The notes: generated by a model from the letters alone, not told the origin. 64,000 nucleotides of DNA from Candidatus Omnitrophota bacterium (GCA_011620275.1 WOZK01000012.1:31665-95664); one strand, 5' to 3'; shown: positions 3,257 through 43,898, numbered from the stretch's first letter. Translations and numbers: made by a program.

Positions 3257-5350
3257 TTATGCACCCTTGCGTGAACTTATCCCTGCGACTATTTTCTCTG
3301 ATATATGTGAAGGCACCTCTGCGTAGAACGAAGGCTCCATTGTATAAGACGCGCGCCCTTGTGTCAAGGATCTCAACACGGTAGCGTAATTGAACACCTC
3401 CGACAACGGCACGTGCGCTCTTATAGCCCTTACGTTGCTTCTGGGAGTTATCGAGATTATCTTGGCGCGCCGAGAGCTGAGGTCGCCGATAACCGCTCCC
3501 ATGAATTCCTCCGGGGTGGTCGCCTCCAGGTCCATGATCGGCTCAAGCAGGAACGACTTAGCCTTCGCCAAACCCTCTTTCAACCCGATGCTTGCCGCCA
3601 TCTTGAACGACATCTCGGATGAATCGACGTCATGATACGAACCGTCAACCAGGGTGACTTTTATATCGGTGACCGGATAACCGGCGAGGATACCGCTTTT
3701 CGCCGTCTCAAAAATACCCTGTTTCACGGCCGGGATATACTCCTGCGGGATCGCTCCACCTTTTATTTTGTTCTCGAAAGTGACCCCCAGTCCGGGCGCT
3801 TCCTGGGGCTCCACATCTATGACCACGTGCCCGTACTGGCCGCGGCCGCCGCTCTGCTGAATAAACTTTCCGGTCACGTTCACCTTCTGGCGCACGGTCT
3901 CGCGGTAAGCTACTTGAGGCACCCCTACCTGCACATCCACATTGAACTCGCGCAGAAGGCGGTCGGTGATGATCTCCAAATGCAACTGCCCCATCCCCGA
4001 CATCAAGGTCTGGCCGGTCTCCTGGTTATAAGTGATGCGGAAAGTCGGGTCTTCTTCGGACAGTTTGTGCAACGACATACCGAGCCGCTCCTGATCGTTC
4101 TTGGTCTTTGGCTCGATAGACTGAGAAAGCACCGGCTCCGGGAATTTCATCGCTTCCAGCAGGATCTGGTTGTTCTCGTTGCAAAGGGTATCTCCTGTCT
4201 TGGTATCCTTCAGCCCCACTACGGCCACGATGTCCCCGGCGTAAGCCGCTTCGATTATCTCCTGACGGTTGGAGTGCATCTTCAAAAGCTTGGTCACGCG
4301 CTCCTTCACCCTTCGAGCGGCGTTATAAATATAAGTCCCGGAAGTCAGCGTCCCGGCGTAAATCCTGGTATAATTCAGTTTTCCCACGAACGGATCGGTG
4401 GCTATCTTGAAGCACAACGCTGTCAGAGGCGCGTCGTCTTCGGTCTTGATCTCCTCGAAATCTCCGCTGTCAGGCTTTGTCCCTTTGATGGGCGGCAGAT
4501 CCAGAGGCGAAGGCAGATAGTCGCATACCGCGTCCAACAGCAGCTGCACGCCTTTGTTCTTGAAAGAGGTGCCGCAAAGCACCGGCACGAATTTGTTCTC
4601 GATTACGCCTTTGCGCACTGCCTTCTTTATCTCCTCGGCCCCGATCTCCTGTCCGCCGAGGTATTTCTCCATGATCCCGTCGTCCGCCTCGGAAAGCCTC
4701 TCCAGCATTTCGCTGCGCAGGCGCTCGGCCTCGGCCTTCAAGTCATCCGGCCATCCCGGGACGACCTCCTGTTCTTTTCCGAGATCATCCTTGTAAATAA
4801 TGGTCTTCTTTTCTATAAGATCAAGAATGCCTTTGAAGTTCTCCTCCTGGCCGTAATTGAACTGTATGGCCGCGGCATTCGCCCCGAGTTTATCGTGTAT
4901 CTGTTTGATCACCTCGCGCATGCTGCTGCCGGTCCTGTCCATCTTGTTGATGTAGGCTATGCGCGGAACATGGTAACGTTCTGCCTGGCGCCAGACCGTC
5001 TCGGACTGCGGTTCAACTCCGCCGACTCCGCAGAAAACCACCACGGCTCCGTCGAGGACCTTGAGTGAACGCTCCACCTCCACGGTAAAATCCACGTGTC
5101 CGGGGGTGTCGATTATATTGATGAAACAATCCTTCCAGCGGCAGGTGGTGGCGGCCGCGGTGATGGTAATGCCGCGCTCCTGCTCCTGCGGCATCCAGTC
5201 CATGACGGCGTTGCCGTCGTGCACTTCCCCGATCTTATAAGTCTTACCGGTATAAAAAAGAATGCGTTCGGTAGTGGTGGTCTTCCCGGCATCAATGTGC
5301 GCGATGATACCGATATTCCTTAATTTATCTAAAGGTATCTGTCTGGCCAT
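3257..5350 (-). CDS. fusA: elongation factor G
   Basis: [26 protein letters not shown]; start chosen at MARQIP (ATG at 5348-5350), ORF track extends to 5380. Confidence 0.96.
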
Positions 5351-6229: not shown

Positions 6230-9200
6230 TTATTCCTTTACGGTTTCTTCTGCGGCAACAGGCTCTGCGGCCTCCACAGGCACGGCATCTGCTGACTTTT
6301 GTATTTTTATTTCCCGGTGGGTATGGAATCCCGTTCCTGCCGGGATCAAATGTCCCACGATAACGTTCTCTTTCAGACCGAACAGATCGTCTTTCTTACC
6401 GGCAGCCGCGGCCTCGGTCAGGACGCGAGTGGTCTCCTGGAAGCTTGCCGCGGATATGAAACTGTCCGTAGTCAGCGAAGCCTTGGTGATGCCCAGCAGC
6501 AGCGGAGTCGCCGAGGCCGGTTTGCCGCCCTTTTTCAGCACTTCCGCGTTAGCCTGCCTGAATGTCCACTTGTCCACCTGCTGCCCCACCAGGAACTCGC
6601 TGTCCCCGGGATTTTCTATACGGACCTTCTTAAGCATCTGCCTGATGATAACTTCAATATGCTTGTCGTTTATGCGTACGCCCTGCAGGCGGTAAACCTC
6701 CTGTATCTCGTTTACCAGGTACTCCTGCAGCACCTTGTCGCCGCAGACACGCAGGATGTCCTGCAGGACCACCGGTCCGTCGGTGAGCTGCTGACCGGCC
6801 GCGACCTTGTCCGCCTTGTAAACGTTGGGGTGTTTCCCGTGCGGGATGGCATACTCCCTTGACATCCCTGTCGGGGACTTGACGACAATCACCCTCTGGC
6901 CTTTTTTCGTCTCACCAAATTCTATGAACCCGTCGATCTCGCTGATAACGGCCGGGTCTTTCGGCCTTCTGGCCTCGAACAGCTCCGCCACGCGCGGCAA
7001 ACCGCCGGTGATGTCCCTGGTCTTGACGACCAATCTGGGTATCTTGGCCAGCATGTCTCCGGCGTCGACCGTCTGGCCGTCCTTGACCAGTATATGCGCT
7101 CCGACGCTGATCGGGTATATGCCCATCACCTCGCCGGCCGCGCTTGCTATGACGATCTGCGGATGGAACTCCTGCTTGTGCTCGACCACTATGCGTTCGG
7201 TCAACTTTGTGACCGGATTAAGTTCTTCCTGTATGGTCTGGCCTTCCTTGATATCCTCGTATTTTACTTTACCGCCGACCTCGGTAAGGATCGGGATCGT
7301 ATACGGGTCCCAGCGCACGAAAGCCACGCCCTTGTTGATCTCCGCCCCATCGGCCACGCTGATGAAAGCCCCCTGAGGAACGGTATAGCGTTCTAACTCC
7401 CTGCCCTGTTCGTCGTTGATGCTGATGCTTCCGTTCCTGTTGAGTACCACGAACTCCTTGTTCTTGTCGGTGACGCGCAGGCCGTGATACTTTACCATGC
7501 CCTTGTTCTTGGACTTGTAGAGCGACTGCTCTACGGTCCTGGACGCCGTGCCTCCTATATGGAACGTTCTCATCGTCAACTGCGTGCCCGGCTCGCCGAT
7601 ACTCTGCGCGGCCACGACACCCACGGCGTCTCCGATTTCGACCAGCCTTCCGCTGGCGAGGTTGCGGCCGTAGCACTTTGAGCAAACTCCCCTGCCGGAT
7701 TCGCATGTAAGAACGCTGCGGATACGTATGCGCTCTATGCCGAGCCTCTCGATCATCTCCGCCTTCTCCTCCGTGATCTCCAAGCCCTGCTCGACGATGA
7801 CCTCGTCGGTGATGATGTCCACGATGTTATCGAGCGCGACTCGCCCGGCGATGCGGTCCTTGAGGCTGACCACCACTTCGTCGCCCTCGATGATTGCCGA
7901 GACGGTAATCCCGTTAAGAGTGCCGCAGTCATCCTCCTCGATAATCACCTCCTGCGCAACATCCACCAGCCTCCTGGTAAGGTATCCGGCGTCGGCCGTC
8001 TTCAAGGCCGTGTCGGCGAGGCCTTTCCTTGCGCCGTGCGTAGAGATAAAATACTCGAGAACCGTCAACCCCTCGCGAAAATTGGCGGTAATCGGGTTCT
8101 CGATGATCTCGCCGGAAGGCTTGGCCATCAGACCTCGCATGCCGGCAAGCTGCCTGACTTGCAGTTTAGAACCGCGAGCCCCGGAATCGGCCATGATGAA
8201 AATCGGATTAAATTTCGGCATCTCTTTGAAAAGAAGGTCGGATATCTTATCGGTTGTATGCGTCCAGATATCGATAACCTTGCTCTTGCGTTCCCTGTCG
8301 GTAATAATACCCCGGCGGTACTGTTCTTCAACTTTGGAGACCTCCGCTCTGGATTCCTTGAGCACGTCCTGTTTCTCTTTCGGGACCAGCAGGTCGTCCA
8401 TACCTATGGATATCCCGCCCAGGGTCGCGTAAATAAACCCGAGCTTCTTGCTCTCGTCGACCAGCTGGATGGTACGCTGGTGGCCGTAACGCTTATAGCA
8501 GACGGCGACTATGTTGCCTACCAGGCCCTTATTCAACTCCTTATTGACGAATCCGAAATCGGACGGCAGTAAACGGTTAAAAATGACCCTGCCGGGAGTG
8601 GTCTCTATGATCTGCCTGCCGTCGATCCTGTTGCCTTCGGCAATGTCCATTACCTGGTCGACGCGCAGCCTGATCTTGGCGTGCAGATCCGCTTCCTTGT
8701 CCTCATAGGCGGTTATTACCTCGGAAGCGTCGGCGAAAATACGGTTCTCCCCCTTGCCGCCCTCTTTCATTTTGGTCAGGTAGGAAACGCCGAGAATGAT
8801 GTCCTGCGTAGGAGAAATTATCGGCCGGCCGTCGGCGGGCGAAAAAAGGTTGTTCACCGACATCATCAGCACCCGGACCTCGATCTGGGCTTCGAGAGAT
8901 AGCGGCACGTGAACGGCCATCTGGTCTCCGTCGAAGTCGGCGTTGAACGCAGTACAAACGAGAGGATGTATCTTTATCGCCTTACCCTCGATAAGCACCG
9001 GCTGAAAAGCCTGAATGCTCAGTCTGTGCAACGTCGGCGCGCGGTTGAGCATTACCGGATGGTCTTTAATGACCTCATCCAGTATATCCCACACCTCTAT
9101 CTTGCCGCGCTCCACCATGCGGCGCGCGCCCTTGATGGTATGCACGAAACCCTTCTCACGGAGCTTCTTTATGATGAACGGTTCAAAAAGTTCCAGCGCC

Positions 9201-10291: not shown

Positions 10292-13200
10292 TTTCCTTCT
10301 TCTCCGTGCGAATGTCCAGGCACAGTCCTTGTAATTCCTTTATCAGGACGTTGAACGATTCCGGCGTCCCGTATGTTAGCCTTTGTTCGCCCTTGACTAT
10401 GGCTTCGTATATATGCGTCCTGCCGGTAACGTCGTCGCTCTTGACGGTAAGCATCTCCTGCAGGGTGAACGCCGCGCCGTAAGCCTCCAGGGCCCAAACT
10501 TCCATCTCTCCCAGCCTCTGGCCTCCGAACTGGGCCTTGCCGCCGAGCGGCTGCTGTGTGACGAGGGAATACGGCCCTATTGAACGGGCATGTATCTTTT
10601 CGTCCACCAGATGAATGAGCTTCATAATATAAATGTACCCCACACAGACCTTCTGGTCGAACTTCTCCCCGGTAAAGCCGTCGTAAAGGTTTATCTTGCC
10701 TTCTTCCGGCAGGTTCGCCTTGCGCAGAAGTTCCTTGATCTCCGCCTCGCTGGCTCCGTCGAAAACCGGGGTGTCCACCGAAAACCCGAGCGCCTTTGCC
10801 GCCCATCCCAGATGCGTCTCCAAGATCTGGCCGACGTTCATGCGGGAAGGAACGCCCAGAGGATTCAGCACCACCTCAACCGGCCTTCCGTCCGGAAGAA
10901 AAGGCATATCTTCCTCGGGAAGGATGCGCGCGACCACGCCCTTGTTGCCGTGGCGGCCAGCGAGTTTGTCTCCCTGGGAGAGCCTGCGCTTTGTGGCGAT
11001 GTAAACCACGACCCGTTTCAACACACCGGGAGGCAGTTCATCGCCGCGTTTGACCCTGTCGATCTCCTGTTCCTGCTCGGAGAGCAATTCCTGGAGCTGT
11101 TCGTCGAAAGAAGCCGCTATTATCCTGGCTTCTTCGTTCTGATCGATGTCTATCACCGGGACCTTCTTCTTATCCACACCCAGGAACTGACTGAGCCTGT
11201 TGATCTTCTCGTTCTCGACGAACTCTATCTCCTGCCTATAATAGGCCTTGATCTCCTTTATACGCGCGAGCTCGGAGGTCTTCTCATCCTTGGATTTCCT
11301 GCCGCGGTCCTTGCGCTGAAAAATGTGCACGTCAACCACCACGCCCTCGACCCCGGGCGGAACGGCAAGAGACGTGTCGCGCACGTCGGAAGCCTTTTCG
11401 CCGAATATGGCGCGCAGCAGACGCTCTTCCGGCGATAATTCAGACTCCGTCTTGGGAGTGACCTTGCCGACCAGAATGTCCCCCGCCCCGACCTCGGCTC
11501 CGATGCGCACCACGCCGTCTTCGTCGAGGTTTTTCAGCGACTCCTCGCTGACATTGGGGATATCCCTGGTTATCTCCTCGTTGCCGAGGCGAGTCTCCGT
11601 CGCTTCTATCTCGAACTCCTCTATGTGTATCGAGGTAAACAGGTCCTCCCGGACCACCTTCTCGCTTATCAGTATGGCGTCCTCGAAGTTGTAACCTCTC
11701 CAGGGCATGAAAGCGCAGAGCAGGTTGCGGCCGAGGGCCAGTTCGCCTTTGCGCGTGCTGGTGCCGTCCGCCAGTACCTGCCCCTTCTCCACGTGCTCTC
11801 CGAGCTTGACGATCGGCCTCTGATTGAAACAAGTATCGGCGTTGGTCCTCTGGAACTTCTTTAAATGGTATATTCTTTTGCCTACCGTTATGGTAGAGGC
11901 GTCCACGCTGGTGATCTTGCCCGAATCCTCGGCGATCACCACGACCCCGGAATCGCGCGCGACCTTCCCTTCCATCTGCGTCCCCACCAGAGGAGCTTCC
12001 GGCACCATCAACGGCACGGCCTGTCTCTGCATGTTCGAACCCATCAGGGCGCGGTTAGCGTCGTCATGCTCGAGAAACGGGATAAGCGACGCGGCGACGG
12101 AAACCAACTGTTTAGGCGAGACGTCCATATACTGGACTTTATTGGGATGCACTTTCGGGAAATCGTCCCTGAAACGGCATGAAACTTCTTTCTCCAGGAA
12201 ATTTCCGTCGGAATCGATGGTGGCGTTGGCCTGGGCGATGATCTTATCCTCTTCCAGGTCTGCCGTGAGATATTCTATCTTGCGGGTCACCCTGCCGTTC
12301 TCGACTTTCCTGTAAGGCGTTTCCAGCAGCCCGAGCGCATTTACCCTGGCGTAACAACTCAAGGAGGAAATCAAACCGATATTCGGGCCTTCCGGGGTTT
12401 CTATGGGACAGATACGACCGTAATGCGAAGGATGTATGTCCCTGACCTCGAAGCCGGCCCTCTCCCTGGACAAACCTCCGGGGCCGAGCGCGCTCAGCCT
12501 TCTTTTATGCGTCATCTCGGCCAGGGGATTTATCTGGTCCATGAACTGGGACAGCTGGCTGCGCGAAAAGAAATCCCTGATCTGATTGGAAAGCAGTTTG
12601 GAATTAACGAGGTAATGCACGTTAAGGTTTTCCATCTCTCCCAGCAGGCTGATTCTCTCGACTATGGAACGTTCGACCCTGGAGAGACCGATCCTGACCT
12701 GGTTCTGCACGAGTTCGCCGACTGTCTTGACTCTGCGGTTACCCAGATGGTCTATATCGTCTATCTTGCCTTCCCCGCTCTTAAGCCTGATCAGATACTC
12801 GATGACCTTGATTACCGTGGCCGAATCCAGCACCCGCTTGTCCAGGGGGACATCCATCCCAAGCTTGCGGTTGAGGATGAAACGGCCGGCCTTTTCCAGG
12901 TCATACCTGGCGGGATCGAAGAACAAACGGTAAAAAAGCGCTTCCGCCGCCTCGCGCGTCACCGGTTCGCTGGGGCGCATCTTGCGGTAGAAATCTATAT
13001 AAGCTTCCTCTTTATTACGCGTGGAGTCTTTCTTAAGGGTATTCTCTATCTCCGGATACTGCTTGCCGAACACGGCTATGATCTCCTTGTCGGAAGAATA
13101 ACCCAGTATCCTCAATATCTGCGTGGCGGGAAAATTGCGGCGTCGGTCAACATAGGCGAGGATCGTCTCTGAAAGGTCATGTTTGAATTCCAGCCAAGCG

Positions 13201-34966: not shown

Positions 34967-36022
34967 TCATTTCTTCGCTTCAGCCGGAACACCGACGCTG
35001 CCCGCGGAGATCGCCTGGCGGAATTCTTTTTCCATTTCCTGAAAGAGCTTAGGCTGTTCTTTCAAGGCTCTTATCGCCACGTCTCTGCCCTGCCCGATCT
35101 TTTCGTTCTTGAAAGAGATCCATGTCCCGGACTTATCGACCAGCCCCAAGTTCATCGCCGCATCCAGAAGGCTTCCCATCTTTGAGATACCTTCATTGTG
35201 CAATATATCGAATTCCGCCTCGCGGAAAGGCGGCGCCACCTTATTCTTCACCACGCGCACCCTTGTCCTTCCGCCGATCACCCGGTCGGCCTCTTTCAGA
35301 GAAGCTATACGCCTGATGTCAAGGCGGACGGAAGAGTAAAACTTCAACGCCCTGCCGCCGGGGGTAGTCTCCGGATTGCCGAACATAACGCCTATCTTTT
35401 CGCGGATCTGGTTTATGAAGATAACGCACGTCTTGGAACGGTTGATGGCGCCGGTCAGTTTCCTCAATGCCTGCGACATAAGGCGCGCCTGCAGTCCCAT
35501 GTGGGAATCGCCCATCTCGCCTTCTATCTCGGCGCGCGGAGTTAACGCCGCCACCGAATCTATAACCACCAGATCTACCGCGTTCGAACGCACCAGGGTT
35601 TCGGTGATATCCAACGCCTGCTCTCCGGTATCCGGCTGGGAAATAAGCAGGTCATCGAGATTAACGCCTATCACGTTGCCGGCATAAGCCGAGTCAAAGG
35701 CGTGTTCCGCGTCGATAAAAGCCGCCACCCCGCCTTTTTTCTGGATCTCACGTATCACGCTCAGAGTAAGAGTGGTCTTACCGGATGCTTCCGGACCGAA
35801 AACCTCGATCACCCTCCCTTTGGGAAGACCACCTACCCCCAGCGCCCAGTCAAGGGTATAAGAACCGGTCGGGATCACCTCCACGTCTATCTTTACGTCC
35901 CCGCCCAGGGTCATAATGGAACCTTTACCATGATGCTTCTCTATCTGGGAAAGGGCCAATTCAAGGGCTTTCTTGCGGTCGTTTATCTCTTTAGATTCCT
36001 CTTTTTTCTTTTCAACCGGCAT
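34967..36022 (-). CDS. recA: recombinase RecA
   Basis: 351 aa; GPEASGKTT Walker A and full RecA family sequence. Confidence 0.98.
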
Positions 36023-36219
36023 AAATACCTCCGCGTTCCTGCGGCATTAATAAAAATTAACCATTATCTTGATTAAGGTTTGTAAACTAAGGGCGTTTAC
36101 CCTAACGTCCCGCACAGCAAGACGTTATTATAACCCACCCCTTTTACCGTGTCAAACAAATAATCCCCCCCCTGGGGGCCCCCTGGGGCCGTTTCAAAAT
36201 CACCTGCGATACGGCAAAT

Positions 36220-37731
36220 TCACTGTCTGCGTATGCTGTAAAGCCCGCCAGACATTGCGTCCAGATAAGCGGTCAATTCCCGAAGTCGTATCTCTTTATC
36301 GAAACGGCGCTTCCTGTCTTCCAGTCGCATATTTGCCAGCTCATGCCGCACGCGCAAGCGTTCGAAATAAGCCTTGGTCACCTGCTCTATTATCTCCTGA
36401 CGCAATTCCGCGGTAAGCTTGGACCGCACGTCTATGGAGGTCTGGGCGTCGTTCCAGATCAAATCACCAAGTTCCCAGACCAAGGCAACCGACCACTCCT
36501 GCGTATATCTTCCTTTGCGCAAGCAATCATCCTCTTGTCTGGTAGTAGAGCCTCCCTCCCAGTGCCAGCGATCGGTGCCGTTACGATCGGCAGAGACCGA
36601 TACCCTGGGGAGCCAGCCGCGCGCCGCCGCCAGTTTCCTCCAGCGAAATATCTTTTCCTGGCCGGAATCGGTAAGCGCTATAGACGCTTCCACTACCTCC
36701 CGTATGCCCGGTTCTCCTTCTTCTTCGGCAGGAGGACGCGAATCTACGGGGTACGCAGGAGGCCCCAATACGCCGGTCTCTACGATACCGCTATCGCAGA
36801 GAAGTAAAAGCCTTCCGGGAGCCGCCACAGCTATTTCGTTTATTCTTCTAATACCGGCGGGAACGCCCGCTTCCGACCAGTACCCTATGGAGGGATAATA
36901 AACGAAAACTTCTCTCCCGTCCGTCGCATAGATCTCTCCCCCGTATCCGGCCGTGACCGCGGACAAAGGATACCGGGGCAGGCCCTGCGCGCTCAATTCT
37001 TCAAACTGCCCGTCGGAGCTCTGCGCCAGATAAATGCGTCCGCGGCAGTAAGCGCACACTCCGCCGTGCGGGAGCGCGGCGATCAGCGCGTTGCCGCTTG
37101 CCCGGGCCTCCTGCGCCGGCTCATCATCCCCGCCGCCGGGTTCATCTTCTCCCTCGGGAACAGCGCCGCAGGACAAAATCCTGTCCCAGGTATTCCCGTT
37201 ATCAAAGCTCTCGTAGATCCCGTTCGAGGCCGCCAGATAAATACCGTCTCGCGCGCCGCGGCAAAGCCGATAAACAGGCATAGACGACAACGCCCCCCCG
37301 GCCTTAACCCAGTGCCCTCCGTTATCGTCGCTAATGACCAATCCGTCCTCTCCGGCGGCAAGGACTCTGCTTCCGGAACAAAGAATCGAGAACAAACCTT
37401 TACCCCTGAACACCCGCCGCCATTCCCTGCCGCCGTCAGAGCTGCAATATACCCCGGTGGAAGAAGCGGCAAAGATAGTGCCGCCGGAGCCGGAAAATGC
37501 CCGCACCTCGCCTTTGATTCCGCGAGTCCTTCCGTAACGCTCCCAGTTCAATCCCCGGTCCTCGCTTTTCCAGACCGTATCCTTTGAACCGGACAGAAAA
37601 ACGTTACCGCCGAGAAACAGGACGCAAAAGGCGTCTTTTACCGAAACGCTGTCCTCTCCGCTTGCCTTTTTCAACGGTACAGGCGCTGAAAGGAACAGCG
37701 GCAGGAAGGCGATCACGCACCATTTACGCAT
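36220..37731 (-). CDS. secreted BNR/Ycf48-like beta-propeller repeat protein
   Basis: Signal peptide; repeated S.DGG..W / SxDxGxTW BNR-like motifs (SEDRGLNWER, SSDGGREWRR, SDDNGGHWVK, SFDNGNTWDR). Confidence 0.6.
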   Translation of the reverse strand: MRKWCVIAFLPLFLSAPVPLKKASGEDSVSVKDAFCVLFLGGNVFLSGSKDTVWKSEDRGLNWERYGRTRGIKGEVRAFSGSGGTIFAASSTGVYCSSDGGREWRRVFRGKGLFSILCSGSRVLAAGEDGLVISDDNGGHWVKAGGALSSMPVYRLCRGARDGIYLAASNGIYESFDNGNTWDRILSCGAVPEGEDEPGGGDDEPAQEARASGNALIAALPHGGVCAYCRGRIYLAQSSDGQFEELSAQGLPRYPLSAVTAGYGGEIYATDGREVFVYYPSIGYWSEAGVPAGIRRINEIAVAAPGRLLLLCDSGIVETGVLGPPAYPVDSRPPAEEEGEPGIREVVEASIALTDSGQEKIFRWRKLAAARGWLPRVSVSADRNGTDRWHWEGGSTTRQEDDCLRKGRYTQEWSVALVWELGDLIWNDAQTSIDVRSKLTAELRQEIIEQVTKAYFERLRVRHELANMRLEDRKRRFDKEIRLRELTAYLDAMSGGLYSIRRQ

Positions 37732-37897
37732 AAGACTCCTCCTTTCGTTTTAAATACACAAGTATTCTCTTTATTTAATAGACGGTGCAAGGAGGGAAAA
37801 TCTAACGGACAATTCTTAACGCCGCCTTGGGTCGGCCGATAATGGGCAAGAGTTCATCGTGCGGGCCGAAGAGAAGAGAAAAAAAACGGAGGGTTCT

Positions 37898-40003
37898 TTA
37901 TAATTCCAGTTCGCGGAATTTTTTGCGCAGGTCGTAAAAAGCCGGCATATCTATTTCTCTCAAAACGGTCTGCGCCTTACGCAGGTATTCCCTGGCCTCC
38001 TGTTTTCGCCGGGCGGATTTACAGATAAAGGCCAGATGGCAGTATGCCTCCGCCAATTCCGGCACTGCTCCGGCCTTGACGGCATTGGCTTCCGCCGTCA
38101 TAAACGAACGCTCCGCGGAAACATAGTCTCCGGTCTCCAGGTACAATTCTCCTATCATATTGTGGTCTCCGGCGATATTGGCATAATTACGCTGTTTAAT
38201 ATCCAATTTCAGCCCTTTCAAATAAAGCTCCAGAGCCCGGGGGTAATCCTTCTCCAGTAGAAAAACCTCCCCCAAATTAAAATAGCAATCGCTAAGCTCT
38301 TCCCCGGCTCCGAGACGCTCGAAAATACGCTGGCTTTTCAGGTAAAACTTTTTTGCCGCCGAATAATCGTCTTTGTTGACGAAAACAAGGCCGATATCGA
38401 AATAATCGCAGGCAAGATTGTATTTATGACGGTATATCCACTGTTTTTCCCTGTTGATATCCGAGCTCTTAGTCAATAATTCCAGGGCGGCGTCATAATT
38501 CCCTGCGTCGATCTGCCAAACCGCCATCCTGCGCAGAACCAGCGCTTCATTCAGACGGTCATGGTTTTCTCTCGCCAGCGCCAGGGACTTGCTGTAGAAC
38601 CCGGCCGCCCCGGCGTGTTTACCCTGCATCTGATATATCCAGCCGATACCGGCATAGGCGCAGGAGAGACCGCTTTGATAACCGTTCTCCGCGCATTGCT
38701 TGGCAAGCTCGTAATAACACTCCAGCGCCTCCTTGCGCCGTCCGGACTGCTCGTAAATTTCCCCCAGGAAACGGTATGCCGCCACACAACGGGGAGTTTT
38801 GTTTACGATGTCCCTGAAAACGGCAGCGGCCGCGGCATGCTCTCCGCCGCGAAACATCCTCCGGCCCTTAAGTAAAAGCAGGTAATTGCTCTCTTCTTCC
38901 TGCGCGGAGGGGCCAAAAAGAAGCACGGCTCCCGTCATCAAGGCAGCAGCCGCGGTCTTCCAGTTCCTTCGCAGACGGTTGCCTGCGATGGAGATCCGCC
39001 GCCGCTCGTAAAGCACGGTATCCGGTCTGCCGTATAACACATACCTGCTCCATGTCCCGATACGCGAAGACTGGGAATATCTGCATAAGCGCACGATTTC
39101 CGCTATGGACAGCCCGCCCCGCAGCCGGCGGTAGAACCCGGCGGCAAAATCCCTGCAGGCGGCGTCCTGCGCAGCCGCGATCGTCCCCAGGTAATGCATA
39201 GTCCCGTGCAGCAGGAAGGAACCGGCTAACGACGGCAAGCCCCGCCGCCCTGCCGCAGAAACGCAGGCATTAGCGAAAACAAACGAAGGAAGAGCTGAAA
39301 CCCCGGCGGCCTGCATGACGTCTTCGGCGCCGAATATCCCGTCGTTGAGCACCCATCCCCCTTTTACCCCCGGCAGGCAATGCCCGGCGAAGTGGATCAT
39401 ATCGTAGCGTCCAAGGGCCTCGCGCAGGAACATCTTGCCGGCGGGAAAAGACCTGAAATCAACGCTTATGCCCGGCAGGCGCGACAGGATACCTTTTATT
39501 TCCAACCCTTCCGCATAGGCGTAAGGCAATCCTCCTGCGGGGTCGGCGAGTACGAGCGCTCTCGCCGGAAACGGCGGTCTCTCTCTGCGGACGTAATCTT
39601 TTTCCCCACGGTAACGCAGTATCCTCGAACAGGCAAACCTGCGGCAGAGAAAATCAGTCCCGTCATAAGCGAGTTCCCACGGCACCTCGACAAGCCGTTC
39701 GTCGAGCAGTATCAAAAGGGTTCTCCGTCCGCTCCCGGAAAGGATTTCCCTGACCCGTGACGGAAATACGGATTTCCATAACAACCGGCCGGAGGAAATC
39801 ATCTCCCGTGCGCCGTCTTCTCCCGGAATATATAAACCGCGGGTAGAAGAAAAGAAAGGGAACCTGCCGCATAGAGAATTCAGTTCCTCGGCGGGGAAAC
39901 CGCAGCGCAGGTGGCGTCTGACCGGAGAGCACTCCATATCTTTTCGATCGAAAACGCCGAGAAATATCTCCCCGTCTTCCAGTAAGATCTCTGCTATCAG
40001 CAA
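37898..40003 (-). CDS. CHAT-domain (caspase-like) protein with one TM helix and C-terminal TPR repeats
   Basis: 701 aa; CHAT His/Cys dyad motifs MIHFAGHC and VFANACVSA; hydrophobic segment TAAAALMTGAVLLFGP; at least 6 TPR-like repeats in the C-terminal ~320 aa. Confidence 0.65.
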   Translation of the reverse strand: MLIAEILLEDGEIFLGVFDRKDMECSPVRRHLRCGFPAEELNSLCGRFPFFSSTRGLYIPGEDGAREMISSGRLLWKSVFPSRVREILSGSGRRTLLILLDERLVEVPWELAYDGTDFLCRRFACSRILRYRGEKDYVRRERPPFPARALVLADPAGGLPYAYAEGLEIKGILSRLPGISVDFRSFPAGKMFLREALGRYDMIHFAGHCLPGVKGGWVLNDGIFGAEDVMQAAGVSALPSFVFANACVSAAGRRGLPSLAGSFLLHGTMHYLGTIAAAQDAACRDFAAGFYRRLRGGLSIAEIVRLCRYSQSSRIGTWSRYVLYGRPDTVLYERRRISIAGNRLRRNWKTAAAALMTGAVLLFGPSAQEEESNYLLLLKGRRMFRGGEHAAAAAVFRDIVNKTPRCVAAYRFLGEIYEQSGRRKEALECYYELAKQCAENGYQSGLSCAYAGIGWIYQMQGKHAGAAGFYSKSLALARENHDRLNEALVLRRMAVWQIDAGNYDAALELLTKSSDINREKQWIYRHKYNLACDYFDIGLVFVNKDDYSAAKKFYLKSQRIFERLGAGEELSDCYFNLGEVFLLEKDYPRALELYLKGLKLDIKQRNYANIAGDHNMIGELYLETGDYVSAERSFMTAEANAVKAGAVPELAEAYCHLAFICKSARRKQEAREYLRKAQTVLREIDMPAFYDLRKKFRELEL

Positions 40004-40012
40004 CGCCCCACC

Positions 40013-40690
40013 TTAACCTTTAAAAAGCAGCCTCACCGCCGCCAGCCTTACGCCCTCCGGAGACGATATCTCCAGGAGATAATCTCCCACCGGAACGCAA
40101 TCGAACCCTCCCACTCCTGCCGAAAGGACTTTAGATTCATATTCTCGCCCTCGGCAGAAGAGCGACGCCCGAATATCCCCGGGCGGTAGACTCCCGTGTA
40201 TCCCGCACCGGAGAGAAAAAAAACCGCCGGAACAGCCGGAAACCGTTATTTCAAACCTCAAGCTGTCCCGGACGCTTCTCAACACTGCTTTACCCGTTCC
40301 CTGCGGCCGTCTTCCTCTGGCGAGCCCCTCCAGCGCGTATCTCCTGGCAGATAATCCCCCGGACGCGCGCAAAAAACGGAAAATCCCATCTTTCCAGGAG
40401 AATTCGGCCTCGGGAAGCGCCGCTCCGGAAAAGAGCCCCTTCAACTCGGCTTTTCTTTCCTCTCCTAAAATAGGAGAGGAAAAGTCCTCTTCCGTTGCCG
40501 CGACGGAAACGATCTCCGCGCACCTGCCGCAGTCCAGAATATGCTCCTTTACGTAAGCCTCTTCCGGCTCCGTTAGCCTGCCCTCAAGAAAACAAACCAG
40601 AGTCTCTTCGTCCGGATGCTTGACAGGCATTACTCCGCGCGAAGCCTTCCACCGTTTATAAACTTTTTTTATTAATTGCCGCTCATCCAT
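40013..40690 (-). CDS. zinc-finger (zf-HC2 type) anti-sigma factor
   Basis: N-terminal HILDCGRCAEI H-x3-C-x2-C motif; start at MDERQ (ATG at 40688-40690) 4 nt after the ECF sigma stop; the rest of the ORF-track N-terminus is probably untranslated. Confidence 0.6.
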   Translation of the reverse strand: MDERQLIKKVYKRWKASRGVMPVKHPDEETLVCFLEGRLTEPEEAYVKEHILDCGRCAEIVSVAATEEDFSSPILGEERKAELKGLFSGAALPEAEFSWKDGIFRFLRASGGLSARRYALEGLARGRRPQGTGKAVLRSVRDSLRFEITVSGCSGGFFSLRCGIHGSLPPGDIRASLFCRGREYESKVLSAGVGGFDCVPVGDYLLEISSPEGVRLAAVRLLFKG

Positions 40691-40694
40691 CCTC

Positions 40695-41309
40695 TCACCC
40701 GTCCTTCCGGTCCGCGGCGAGGTCATAACCCCTGCTACGGAAACATTCGCGCAGCCTGCCGAGCACCCGTTTCCTGCGCATATCCACGGCCCCTCTCGAA
40801 CTGCGCAGCAGTTTCTGTAGATGCCCGAGGCGCAGGCCGCGTGCGAAATACAATTCCATAAAATACTTGTCCTCAAGACCAAGTCTTTCTATACAGCTTT
40901 TGAGATGATCTACCATTTCGCTCTCCTGCGCGGAACCCGCGGCGTCCGCCACCGCGTTACCTTGCGTAAAACAATATTCAACTTCCGGGGTCTCCTCCTC
41001 CTGATAAAAATGATGAACTCTGCGCGCGCGGTCTATGGTGGCGTTAAGCGCCACCTGGCGCAGCCAGCTTGCCAGGCTGCAGCCGTTTCTGGCCTGAAAA
41101 GTGCGAAGCTTACGGAAATCGTCTTTCAGCAAAGAAAGGAATATTTCCTGAAGTATATCCTGGGGATTGATCTCGGAAGCGGAAGCGCCTCTGGCCTTCA
41201 AGGCGTTATGGACGAAACTGAAGATAAGCTGGGAATACCTGTCTACGAATTCGCTCCAGGCCGCCTTGTCGCCCATGACGCAGCGCCGGATGAAATCCAT
41301 ATCATCCAT
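40695..41309 (-). CDS. ECF-family RNA polymerase sigma factor (sigma-70 regions 2 and 4)
   Basis: 204 aa; region 2 FVDRYSQLIFSFVH..DILQEIF and region 4 HTH near the C-terminus. Confidence 0.85.
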   Translation of the reverse strand: MDDMDFIRRCVMGDKAAWSEFVDRYSQLIFSFVHNALKARGASASEINPQDILQEIFLSLLKDDFRKLRTFQARNGCSLASWLRQVALNATIDRARRVHHFYQEEETPEVEYCFTQGNAVADAAGSAQESEMVDHLKSCIERLGLEDKYFMELYFARGLRLGHLQKLLRSSRGAVDMRRKRVLGRLRECFRSRGYDLAADRKDG

Positions 41310-41322
41310 ACGGGTATTTTGT

Positions 41323-41700
41323 CTACTTTGATTTGAATTCCCCGGTCCGAAAGTCGAGCGAAAGGATGTAAGGTATCTTAGACTGGGGTTCTCTGCCGCC
41401 CTTTGTGCATCTCTCGGCCACGCCTCTCTGGCCCTCGGAAGAAAGATAATAGCGGAAATAATGAGTCGGGACGCATTTTTCCGGAGCGATCACATCGAGC
41501 TCTTTAACCGACTGCGCGCTCTCTCCGGTGAACATGCTGAGCGCCTGCTGCGCGTTGCGCAGCTGCCCAAGCACGTAACGAGCCTCCGCGACGCGTGATT
41601 TCTCTATGATGTCCCTTAAAGCGGCGAAACCCATGAACAAAAGGGCCAGGATGATCAGGATGGTGATAATGAGTTCGAGAAAAGAAAAACCCAATTTCAT
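41323..41700 (-). CDS. type IV pilin-like/pseudopilin protein with prepilin-type N-terminal cleavage/methylation domain
   Basis: MKLG|FSFLELIITILII: Gly at -1, Phe at +1, Glu at +5, followed by a hydrophobic helix. Confidence 0.75.
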   Translation of the reverse strand: MKLGFSFLELIITILIILALLFMGFAALRDIIEKSRVAEARYVLGQLRNAQQALSMFTGESAQSVKELDVIAPEKCVPTHYFRYYLSSEGQRGVAERCTKGGREPQSKIPYILSLDFRTGEFKSK

Positions 41701-41740
41701 AATATATTATTTTAGTAGCTTATGGGGAAATGGCAAGCAG

Positions 41741-41798: not shown

Positions 41799-43898
41799 TT
41801 ATTTAAAAAAACCGTGCGCGATTATGAACGACGCGAAAACGATGGACACCATGGACATCAGCTTGATTAAAATGTTCAAGCTGGGGCCGGAAGTATCCTT
41901 GAAAGGATCGCCAACGGTATCTCCTACAACCCCCGCTTTGTGGGCTATCGACCCTTTACCGCCGTGATGCCCTTCTTCGATGAACTTCTTGGCATTGTCC
42001 CATGCCCCGCCGGCATTAGCCATCATTACCGCAAGCACGAAACCGGTGACCGTGGCCCCCGTCAATAATCCGACGACCGCTTCCACTCCCACGAAAATAC
42101 CCACCAGTATAGGCGCGGCAATCGCCAGCAGAGAAGCCGGAATCATTTCTTTTTGCGCGGCAGCGGTAGCTATATCCACGCAGCGTGCGTAATCAGGCTT
42201 GGCCTTGCCTTCCAACAGACCGGTTATCTCTTTAAACTGTCGGCGGACTTCCACCACTATCTTGCCCGCAGCGCGCCCCACGGCGCGCATGGTCAAGGCG
42301 CAAAAAAGGAACGGCAGCATCCCGCCCAGAAACAACCCGACCAGGACGTTGGGATTGATAAGACTCAAGGAAAGTTCTTTACCGGCAAGCGCCACCTGGT
42401 CACGGTAAGCCGCGATCAGCGCCAGCGCCGTCAAGGCCGCAGAACCGATGGCAAAACCTTTTCCGGTCGCCGCTGTAGTATTGCCCAAAGCGTCCAGCGC
42501 GTCTGTCCTCTTGCGCACTTCAGGAGGAAGATGAGACATCTCCGCGTTCCCCCCGGCGTTGTCCGCCACCGGCCCGTAAGCGTCGGTAGCAAGCGTGATA
42601 CCGAGCGTCGAAAGCATGCCGACCGCCGATATCCCTATTCCGTAAAGACCGGTCCCGTAATTAGAGGCGCCGCCCGACAGGAAGAAACTCAACATAATCG
42701 CCAAACAAACTATTATTACGGGAACGGCGGTGGACATCATTCCTACCGCCATACCTCCGATAATTACCGTGGCCGGACCGGTCAAGGCCGAGTCGGCGAT
42801 GCCCTGTGTCGGTTTAAAGCTGCTCGAGGTGTAGTACTCGGTGCAAAGACCGATGATCATTCCCGCGATCAAGCCGGCCAGCACGGAATAGTAAACCCCG
42901 ATATGCTGCATACCAAGCGTTCCCTTGACCAGGAAAAAAGAAACCACCGCGACTATAAAGGAACTGACAAAAACGCCTTTTCTCAAGGCCGCCAGAAGCA
43001 CTCGCTGGTTAGCCTCTTCACGGCTCTTGACGAAAAACGTCCCGATGATAGAAGCGACCACGCCCACGGCCGCCATGACCATGGGAACGGTGACCCCGGG
43101 AAGACCGAGACCGGCCGTCACGCCCAGCGCGGAAGTGGCCACGATGGAGCCCACGTATGATTCGTATAGATCGGCTCCCATGCCGGCTACGTCTCCCACG
43201 TTATCCCCCACGTTATCGGCGATTACCGCCGGGTTGCGCGGGTCGTCTTCGGGAATGCCCGCCTCAACCTTACCCACAAGGTCGGCGCCCACGTCTGCGG
43301 CCTTGGTAAATATACCGCCTCCCACGCGCGCGAACAACGCCTGTGAACTGGCGCCCATGCCGAAACAAAGCATAGTAGAAGTAATGGCGGTTATTTTATC
43401 CATGCCGTAAGGAATAGCATGCGTTCCGTAATACCAATTAAGAAAATAATACCAGATGCTCAAATCAAGCAGCCCCAGACCGACTACCACCAGCCCCATG
43501 ACTGCGCCGCTGGAAAAAGCCACGCGCAAGCCGGAATTAAGGCTTTTAGTGGCGGCCTGCGCCGTGCGGTTGGAGGCGTTGGTCGCCACCGTCATGCCGA
43601 TAAAACCGGACAAGCCGGAAAAGAAACCGCCGGTAAGGAAGGCGAACGGCACGAATATCACCAGGTAGTTCTTGAAGGACAGATAAAACAGTATCAGGGA
43701 GACCACGGCAAAGAATATGCCCACTCCGACGTATTGCCTCTTCAGATAAGCGCGCGCGCCTACCTTTACCGCCAGAGCGATCTCCTTCATGCGGTCGTTA
43801 CCCTGGTCCTGTCTCATAATGAAACAAGCCAGATACGCCGCGAACGAAAGCGCCAGGATCGAACCTACGGGTGCCATCCAAAGAAAATCTGAAAACAT
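41799..43898 (-). CDS. hppA: membrane-bound proton-translocating pyrophosphatase (V-type H+-PPase)
   Basis: 699 aa, about 15 TM segments; motifs [19 protein letters not shown] and [21 protein letters not shown]. Confidence 0.93.

Follow-up and report, generated by a model that had tools for sequence, protein, structure and literature searches.

The stretch of DNA considered here, 64,000 nucleotides (nt) of an Omnitrophota metagenome-assembled genome (GCA_011620275.1, WOZK01000012.1:31665-95664) that we refer to as the window, carries five co-oriented minus-strand open reading frames (ORFs) between recA (34967-36022) and the gene for an H+-pyrophosphatase (H+-PPase; 41799-43898). Three of them encode a sigma factor of the extracytoplasmic function (ECF) type, a zinc-binding anti-sigma (ZAS) factor, and a protein that combines a CHAT domain, a transmembrane (TM) helix, and tetratricopeptide repeats (TPR). 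It is strongly supported that these three genes are one conserved functional unit of the Omnitrophota. The closest relatives of the source organism are likewise Omnitrophota metagenome-assembled genomes, a species-representative genome being 96% identical and 'Candidatus Undivivens industriae' 90%. In the direction of transcription, the first of the five ORFs is a type IV pilin-like gene (41323-41700; 125 amino acids [aa], prepilin signal MKLG/FSFLE), followed by the genes for the group IV (ECF) sigma factor (40695-41309; 204 aa), the ZAS-type anti-sigma factor, which is predicted to be soluble (40013-40690; 225 aa), the CHAT-TM-TPR protein (37898-40003; 701 aa), and a secreted BNR/Asp-box protein predicted to form a seven-bladed beta-propeller (36220-37731; 503 aa). 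A preliminary description of this DNA had listed the same five ORFs with these coordinates. Its spacing needed one correction, as the gap between the pilin-like and sigma genes is 13 nt rather than 14, whereas the 4 nt it gave between the sigma stop codon and the anti-sigma ATG is right. The anti-sigma stop codon lies 9 nt before the TTG start codon of the CHAT gene, and 166 nt separate the CHAT stop codon from the BNR ATG. A sigma-70-type promoter, TTGCCA-16-TAAAAT (41709-41736, minus strand, 10 of 12 positions matching), is found 8 nt before the ATG of the pilin-like gene, and an ECF-type promoter motif, GTTAGATTTTCCCTCCTTGCACCGTCTAT, is located at 37778-37806 on the minus strand, 46 nt 5' of the BNR ATG, where it is a predicted target of the operon's sigma factor. 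Public databases annotate the module proteins in generic terms, as 'sigma-70 family', as 'tetratricopeptide repeat protein', or as 'hypothetical'.

Conservation was surveyed on the basis of the CHAT gene by scanning one genome per GTDB species; ORFs were called in 80 retrieved loci, named below by L numbers, and searched with the window proteins. For upstream gene order, only loci with 1.5 kb or more of upstream DNA were counted (n = 68), and for the BNR gene those with 7.5 kb or more of downstream DNA (n = 42). Full-length CHAT-TM-TPR relatives occur in at least 104 species, nearly all labelled Omnitrophota, and share 35-40% identity over residues ~2-700. All 68 loci have the order sigma, anti-sigma, CHAT-TM-TPR on one strand, and the anti-sigma stop codon abuts or overlaps the CHAT start, with gaps that are mostly below 12 nt. 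The reverse test gave the same picture: among metagenome loci found via the anti-sigma gene alone and having enough downstream DNA, the CHAT gene adjoins in 36 of 37, and the sole exception matches the anti-sigma factor over its N-terminal ~60 residues only. The BNR gene is present in 38 of the 42 loci, at a distance of 0 to 6 kb and in 37 cases on the same strand. This gene-neighbourhood check bears out the preliminary description, which had seen one signalling module here: the adjacency of the sigma, anti-sigma, and CHAT-TPR genes is conserved, and the BNR gene is joined to them via a common promoter motif. The taxonomy labels of the lineage are inconsistent, the same protein families being labelled Omnitrophota, Elusimicrobia, 'uncultured Planctomycetales', or Margulisiibacteriota by different submissions.

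The surroundings of the module are also conserved. The H+-PPase gene is found directly 5' of the sigma gene in 38 loci, and the genes 3' of the BNR gene across the phylum are those for thioredoxin (trx), pta, ackA, panD, and def. An accessory or horizontally acquired island, as the preliminary description had it, is ruled out by the flat, unremarkable composition of the block and by the synteny kept across the phylum. The module is a core, syntenic operon of the Omnitrophota.

The domain assignments of the third gene product stood up well. The CHAT domain (PF12770) is matched with 71.2 bits (E = 1.3e-19) over residues 71-325 (nt 39029-39793), corresponding to profile positions 3-288 of 289, and TPR_12 is matched with 101 bits, the TPR array spanning aa 370-701; both matches are above curated thresholds. 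The His/Cys dyad that had been reported is intact, with H208 in an HFAGH motif (codon at 39380-39382, minus strand) and C247 in an NAC motif (39263-39265, minus strand). All 81 distinct sequences, which share only 35-40% identity, keep both residues and the HFAGH and NAC(x)SA motifs without exception. Such conservation of the dyad and the surrounding motifs argues for catalysis being retained. The single TM helix of the preliminary description is strong in the wider family, with a mean Kyte-Doolittle value of 2.2 for the one hydrophobic helix between CHAT and TPR, but it is marginal in the window protein, where the segment T350-A367 (nt 38903-38956) consists of 18 uncharged residues and reaches only 1.21 over 19 residues or 1.6 over 17. 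The family has no N-terminal signal peptide. Lysine and arginine residues flanking the helix average 5.2 on the N-terminal side versus 1.5 on the C-terminal side, a bias present in 73 of 81 sequences, and this charge bias would make CHAT cytoplasmic and TPR periplasmic. The CHAT domain was also considered as a sequence relative of the solved proteases Csx29, DdvA, and separase. This was dropped, as no sequence relation to them was found and the search against solved chains returned TPR matches only.

The sigma factor passes the curated thresholds for Sigma70_r2 (28.5 bits, cut-off 24) and for TIGR02937, the sigma70-ECF model (52.3 bits, cut-off 42.9, residues 17-189), in agreement with the first assignment. 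The profile search gave no separate Pfam region-4 match, and the scores with the NCBIfam subfamily models were all far under their cut-offs. The nearest solved structures are SigK and SigW. For the anti-sigma factor, which had been called a zinc-finger protein, the conserved zinc-ligand motif is kept, whereas the zf-HC2 profile (PF13490) is matched with only 19.1 bits (E = 0.0015) and its gathering threshold of 22.2 is not reached. The ligand spacing H25-x24-H50-x3-C54-x2-C57 is that of ZAS (zf-HC2) anti-sigma factors; among the homologues H50, C54, and C57 are invariant, as is C33, and H25 is at least 90% conserved. Zinc binding and the binding and inhibition of the sigma factor are predicted, with gene adjacency and the predicted N-terminal helices as the indications available. 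An N-terminal helical anti-sigma domain is followed by a conserved middle region (residues 66-131) and a C-terminal beta-sandwich (134-223). The AlphaFold2 model (predicted local distance difference test score, 63.6) has four N-terminal helices, a poorly modelled middle region, and the C-terminal sandwich. No membrane helix was found in 75 sequences (mean maximum hydropathy, 1.13) or in ~150 listed representatives, and because the anti-sigma factor has no TM helix a cytoplasmic CHAT domain could reach it. An exhaustive hidden Markov model search places between 119 (E <= 1e-30) and 591 (E <= 1e-10) clusters at 50% identity in the anti-sigma family, and the ~150 listed relatives are standalone proteins of ~230 aa, save for truncated fragments and one repeat protein of 3350 aa. 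ChrR, of the Rhodobacter sphaeroides sigmaE/ChrR pair, is a soluble ZAS anti-sigma factor with a C-terminal beta-rich (cupin) sensor domain and the ligand arrangement His-x24/25-His-x3-Cys-x2-Cys. The module's anti-sigma factor resembles it in being a soluble two-domain ZAS protein, in ligand spacing, and in having a C-terminal beta domain. ChrR differs in that its domain is a cupin and that it has no dedicated CHAT partner, and the structural similarity is not significant: a fold search with the model gave nothing at E <= 0.001, generic Ig-like sandwiches came up, and the weak Foldseek matches to ChrR (PDB 2Q1Z and 2Z2S) have a probability of 0.30-0.35.

Two side observations concern the anti-sigma gene and its family. 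The giant 3350-aa protein (P0289) contains 23 repeats that match anti-sigma profile positions 164-214, so that the C-terminal beta-sandwich also occurs as a repeat unit in another context. Long antisense ORFs without stop codons lie opposite the anti-sigma gene, on the minus strand of L015-L094 (for example, L069 9127-10083), and those of 57 of 80 loci fall into a common cluster. They are probably a by-product of codon usage and of the clustering of close relatives.

Two kinds of promoter are found in the module. In distant species, a housekeeping promoter with the extended -10 element TGnTATAAT lies 6-10 nt before the sigma ATG; in L019-L094 the stretch in question is ~10-35 nt upstream of each sigma gene start (for example, L019 ~8580-8615). 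This position indicates that the transcript of the sigma gene, or of the pilin-like gene in the window clade (window 41701-41736), would be leaderless or nearly so across the Omnitrophota. An autoregulated ECF-type promoter was looked for 5' of the sigma gene and was not found; the housekeeping TGnTATAAT sits there instead. The second kind is a two-box motif, GTTAGATT-N15/16-CGTCTATT, which is present in 50 of 59 distinct BNR upstream regions. Of the 80 species loci, 51 have it before the BNR gene and 54 before the anti-sigma gene, in both cases ~20 nt from the start codon; in most of the distant species a copy spans the stop codon of the sigma gene, ~22 nt from the ATG of the anti-sigma gene. 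The 64-kb window contains a single match, the one right before the BNR gene, with a chance expectation of 0.02. The motif has the features of an ECF promoter, namely, -35/-10 geometry, a CGTC-type -10 element, and a fixed distance to strong Shine-Dalgarno sites. The common motif supports the view that the BNR gene belongs to the unit, as judged from these upstream sequences. If the operon's sigma factor reads the motif, the BNR gene would be the principal gene under its control, with a feedback loop through the anti-sigma and CHAT genes.

The ECF-type motif was also seen ~20 nt 5' of a gene for a ~160-aa IS200-like Y1 transposase/RAYT protein (PF01797, 63.8 bits), at L033 3586-3613 (-), L039 8484-8511 (-), L047 8468-8495 (-), L082 8445-8472 (-), and L059 12270-12297 (+). 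In four loci this gene and the sigma gene are divergent. The regulon of some species may include a domesticated transposase. Another element, a hairpin of ~60 nt (GTGAGGGCAC...TGCCCGAACTTAYCC), is inserted right behind the -10 box of the ECF-type promoter. It occurs in BNR leaders (L021 ~12432-12500, L047 ~12764-12840, L055, L124, L035, L041/L049, and L078), in anti-sigma leaders (L048 ~3985-4090 and L102), at L060 ~18930, and as three tandem copies at L086 13320-13700; it is absent from the window. Compensatory changes are found in 7 of 16 pairs (7 sequences). No Rfam match was obtained for the hairpin or for the long BNR leaders. Given the extra and tandem copies, we suggest that the hairpin is an element resembling repetitive extragenic palindromes or miniature inverted-repeat transposable elements rather than a riboswitch.

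The BNR protein is the predicted main member of the regulon. The signal peptide and the propeller fold with BNR repeats that had been described are both there, whereas the BNR profile matches of the window copy are weak and sub-threshold. By fold and repeats, the protein belongs with the BNR/Asp-box beta-propellers (Ycf48 / Sortilin-VPS10-like). Its most conserved part is a C-terminal domain of ~165 aa (aa ~341-503), with a mean column identity of 0.74 versus 0.54. The predicted order of elements in this domain is two helices, then four strands, then two long helices, a pattern that is no more than suggestive of TolC/OEP. PF02321 (OEP) matched the domain in 2 of 16 members, weakly (best E = 0.0032), and a PDB profile search with the domain gave no match. 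We therefore take a TolC/OEP-like reading, which these data weakly support, as a lead only. A presumed efflux operon in the window, considered as a source of TolC for comparison, actually encodes homoserine dehydrogenase and a pyridoxal phosphate-dependent enzyme. In one distant species, a gene for a chagasin-family cysteine-protease inhibitor (Inhibitor_I42; L007 5682-6089, +) is located shortly 3' of the BNR gene and is followed by the thioredoxin gene. In one species, a c-di-GMP-I riboswitch (RF01051, 37.3 bits versus a gathering score of 35) is located in the variable region between the CHAT-TPR and BNR genes (L078 12106-12202, +).

The pilin-like gene behaves differently. The protein has a canonical class III prepilin signal, MKLG/FSFLELIITILIILALLFMGF, with G at -1, F at +1, and E at +5, followed by a hydrophobic helix (hydropathy, 2.62), and to this extent it had been named correctly; the curated profiles, however, all remain under their cut-offs (TIGR02532, 12.8 versus 16.3; GspG, 14.4 versus 88.9 with E = 0.028; Pilin_GH, 14.9 versus 28.9). 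In public annotation it is 'PilE' or hypothetical. The gene fills the gap between the H+-PPase and sigma genes in only 11 of 94 loci, all from close relatives of the window, and elsewhere near the module prepilin-like ORFs are rare and have no consistent placement. The preliminary description had counted it as part of the module and as a conceivable CHAT substrate. Because the gene is clade-specific, a role as CHAT substrate is unlikely, and we discarded it on these grounds both as a substrate and as a module member; it is probably a clade-specific passenger.

What could this operon do? We favour the reading of a phylum-wide envelope-signalling operon in which CHAT cleaves the anti-sigma factor and frees the sigma factor, and we give it about an even chance of being right. 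It builds on gene order and coupling, the domain identities, the invariant dyad, the anchor-free anti-sigma factor, the topology bias, and the common promoter motif, all of which are established computationally. Regulated proteolysis, with the sigma/anti-sigma pair being serviced by a membrane CHAT-TPR protein, is moderately supported. We infer that the anti-sigma factor binds the sigma factor, that CHAT cleaves the anti-sigma factor, and that TPR is the sensor. A housekeeping promoter would drive the ECF sigma gene, with the pilin-like gene in front of it in the window clade, and the soluble zinc-binding anti-sigma factor encoded just 3' would keep the sigma factor inactive. The product of the third gene would be a single-pass membrane protein with its CHAT domain on the cytoplasmic side and its TPR array on the periplasmic side. 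Binding of a periplasmic cue by the TPR array would switch CHAT on, and the activated CHAT domain would cleave the anti-sigma factor. The conserved middle region is the most plausible place for the cut, and a conserved basic patch around residues 122-127 (LRSR in most species) is a speculative candidate site. The released sigma factor would then transcribe the gene for the secreted BNR propeller from GTTAGATT-N15/16-CGTCTATT promoters. In most species, but not in the window clade, the anti-sigma and CHAT genes would be driven by the sigma factor as well, resulting in feedback. More specifically, one transmembrane caspase-like protease may constitute the whole transduction step of an ECF pathway, with a periplasmic TPR part that senses an envelope cue and a cytoplasmic CHAT part that directly cleaves a soluble ZAS anti-sigma factor, as a core trait of the Omnitrophota; this fuller proposal falls a little short of an even chance. 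If it is true, one protein would serve in place of the site-1/site-2 proteolytic cascade, an arrangement fixed in the uncultivated Omnitrophota. The cue bound by TPR may be the BNR-propeller protein that the pathway itself would induce, recognised by its conserved C-terminal domain.

Several known systems share part of this logic. In the E. coli sigmaE/RseA system, the membrane protein RseA is cut sequentially by the periplasmic serine protease DegS and the intramembrane metalloprotease RseP (summarised in PMC10028731). The proposed module would have in common with it the route from an envelope signal via anti-sigma proteolysis to release of an ECF sigma factor, and the co-regulation of the anti-sigma factor by the sigma factor; unlike it, the module would use a single transmembrane cysteine protease that acts on a soluble anti-sigma factor. 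The preliminary description did not recognise the gene combination as a described system. The literature that we searched indeed contains no description of an ECF and CHAT module in the Omnitrophota, but CHAT control of ECF sigma factors as such has precedents. In Myxococcus xanthus, the ECF sigma factor DdvS is paired with the ZAS-TM-TPR-CHAT anti-sigma factor DdvA, for which proteolysis by CHAT upon a signal, with release of the sigma factor, has been proposed (PMC11506125). The parts are the same as in the module: an ECF sigma factor, a zinc-binding anti-sigma domain, one TM segment, a TPR array, and CHAT with a His-Cys dyad. In DdvA, however, all parts except the sigma factor are in one protein of ~1000 aa, with TPR preceding CHAT and both in the periplasm, whereas the module has a separate soluble anti-sigma factor and a CHAT-TM-TPR protein whose CHAT domain is predicted to be cytoplasmic; the module is thus not of the DdvA type. 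Self-cleavage followed by RseP has been proposed for DdvA, and DdvS/DdvA is confined to Myxococcota and one Comamonas (PMC11506125). It regulates a CBASS/CRISPR defence island, whereas no defence genes were found around the module with PADLOC and its predicted target is the BNR propeller. The best mechanistic precedent, by analogy, is craspase (type III-E Cas7-11-Csx29), in which the TPR-CHAT protease Csx29 cleaves Csx30 and so relieves CASP-sigma (PMC10028731). The likeness lies in a cytoplasmic CHAT domain and a soluble inhibitor of an ECF-type sigma factor, cleavage being only proposed in the module. Target binding on Cas7-11, guided by RNA, is what activates craspase, which is fully soluble, has TPR N-terminal of CHAT, and acts on Csx30, a protein that is not of the ZAS type; the module has no Cas7-11 or CRISPR context, spans the membrane, implying an extracytoplasmic input, and has the reverse domain order, so that it is not a craspase either. 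In the ECF54 group, CHAT-domain proteins and carboxypeptidase-regulatory-like or subtilase proteins are found in the gene context and proteolytic control has been proposed (PMC8999054; PMC7826278). These sigma factors are actinobacterial and are described as being without an anti-sigma factor, whereas the module has one. The module shares its logic with DdvA, craspase, and ECF54 but lacks the features that define each of them, being split and not fused, reversed in order and topology, and outside any context of defence.

A number of points weigh against the proteolysis model. The link between CHAT and the anti-sigma factor is a prediction, as is any cleavage site, and that the operon's sigma factor reads GTTAGATT-N15/16-CGTCTATT is something we infer from position only. 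The zf-HC2 match is sub-threshold, the anti-sigma model is of low confidence and without a significant structural match, and the window's own clade has a TM segment of no more than marginal hydrophobicity and has lost the internal promoter before the anti-sigma gene. Adjacency is also weaker evidence than it appears, because the whole region, from H+-PPase upstream to trx, pta, and ackA downstream, is syntenic phylum-wide. The extreme form of this objection, that inherited synteny alone keeps the genes together and that the CHAT-TPR protein is functionally unrelated to the sigma/anti-sigma pair, could point to panD and def as well, which are also syntenic. We regard it as very improbable and already disfavoured, since the trio is intact in L007 and L010 despite different flanking genes, CHAT and BNR are anywhere between 0 and 6 kb apart while the gap between anti-sigma and CHAT never opens, and the common promoter motif ties the genes together.

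The ECF-type promoter raises the main rival explanation. As it also precedes the anti-sigma and CHAT genes in most species (54 of 80 species loci), the CHAT protein would be induced by the sigma factor and could be an output and not the sensor. The anti-sigma factor would then be inactivated via its own zinc/thiol site, as in RsrA, or via its C-terminal beta-sandwich, as in ChrR, and the CHAT-TM-TPR and BNR proteins would be sigma-induced envelope effectors that act on other substrates. The full ZAS ligand set and the extra C-terminal domain, which is of the sensor type as in ChrR, are in line with this, as are the weak Foldseek matches to ChrR. On the other hand, a physical partnership of the anti-sigma factor and CHAT accounts better for the near-perfect two-way co-occurrence of their genes and for the translational coupling between them, an anti-sigma factor that is co-induced with its protease is also compatible with the proteolysis model, and the window clade keeps the trio although it lacks the internal promoter. 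We consider the effector role rather unlikely but a real contender. Alternatively, the CHAT-TM-TPR protein could be a non-proteolytic membrane scaffold or co-anti-sigma factor that tethers the anti-sigma/sigma complex until a TPR-sensed signal frees it. An anti-sigma factor without its own membrane anchor and a tightly coupled gene pair would suit such a role, and the CHAT site of DdvA was seen at rest and incompletely formed, and mutation of the dyad left unstimulated cells without a phenotype (PMC11506125). The invariance of the dyad and its motifs in all 81 divergent sequences speaks against it, and we hold a scaffold to be improbable. Least credible of all is that the pilin-like protein is a CHAT substrate or an integral part of the module. 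In the window clade its gene precedes the sigma gene by 13 nt and shares its promoter, but none of the distant loci has it at this position, the sigma promoter there directly adjoining H+-PPase or other genes, and its rare counterparts near the module are inconsistently placed; moreover, CHAT is predicted to lie in the cytoplasm, outside of which mature pilins are found. We also considered an anti-phage defence system and rejected it, as PADLOC gave a generic TPR match only and the neighbours are housekeeping genes, without CRISPR or CBASS.

CHAT proteases abound in bacteria, but to our knowledge the substrate or the trigger has been established for few of them, and we know of no cultured representative of the Omnitrophota. 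The worked examples in which CHAT is connected to a sigma factor, craspase and DdvA, both belong to phage defence, and the module would carry this logic to ordinary envelope signalling. Its wiring would also differ, with the anti-sigma factor split off, CHAT on the inside, and TPR on the outside. It is compact, as it comprises three genes, one defined promoter, one predicted target gene, and more than 100 natural variants, and it would offer a first handle on gene regulation in the Omnitrophota. The BNR-propeller protein with its conserved C-terminal domain is thereby flagged as a candidate for a specifically regulated envelope component.

Downstream of the module in the window, a short G/C hairpin (36165-36178) comes after the BNR stop codon and is followed, upstream of recA, by a perfect consensus sigma-70 promoter (TTGACA-17-TATAAT, 12 of 12 positions) at 36127-36155 on the minus strand.

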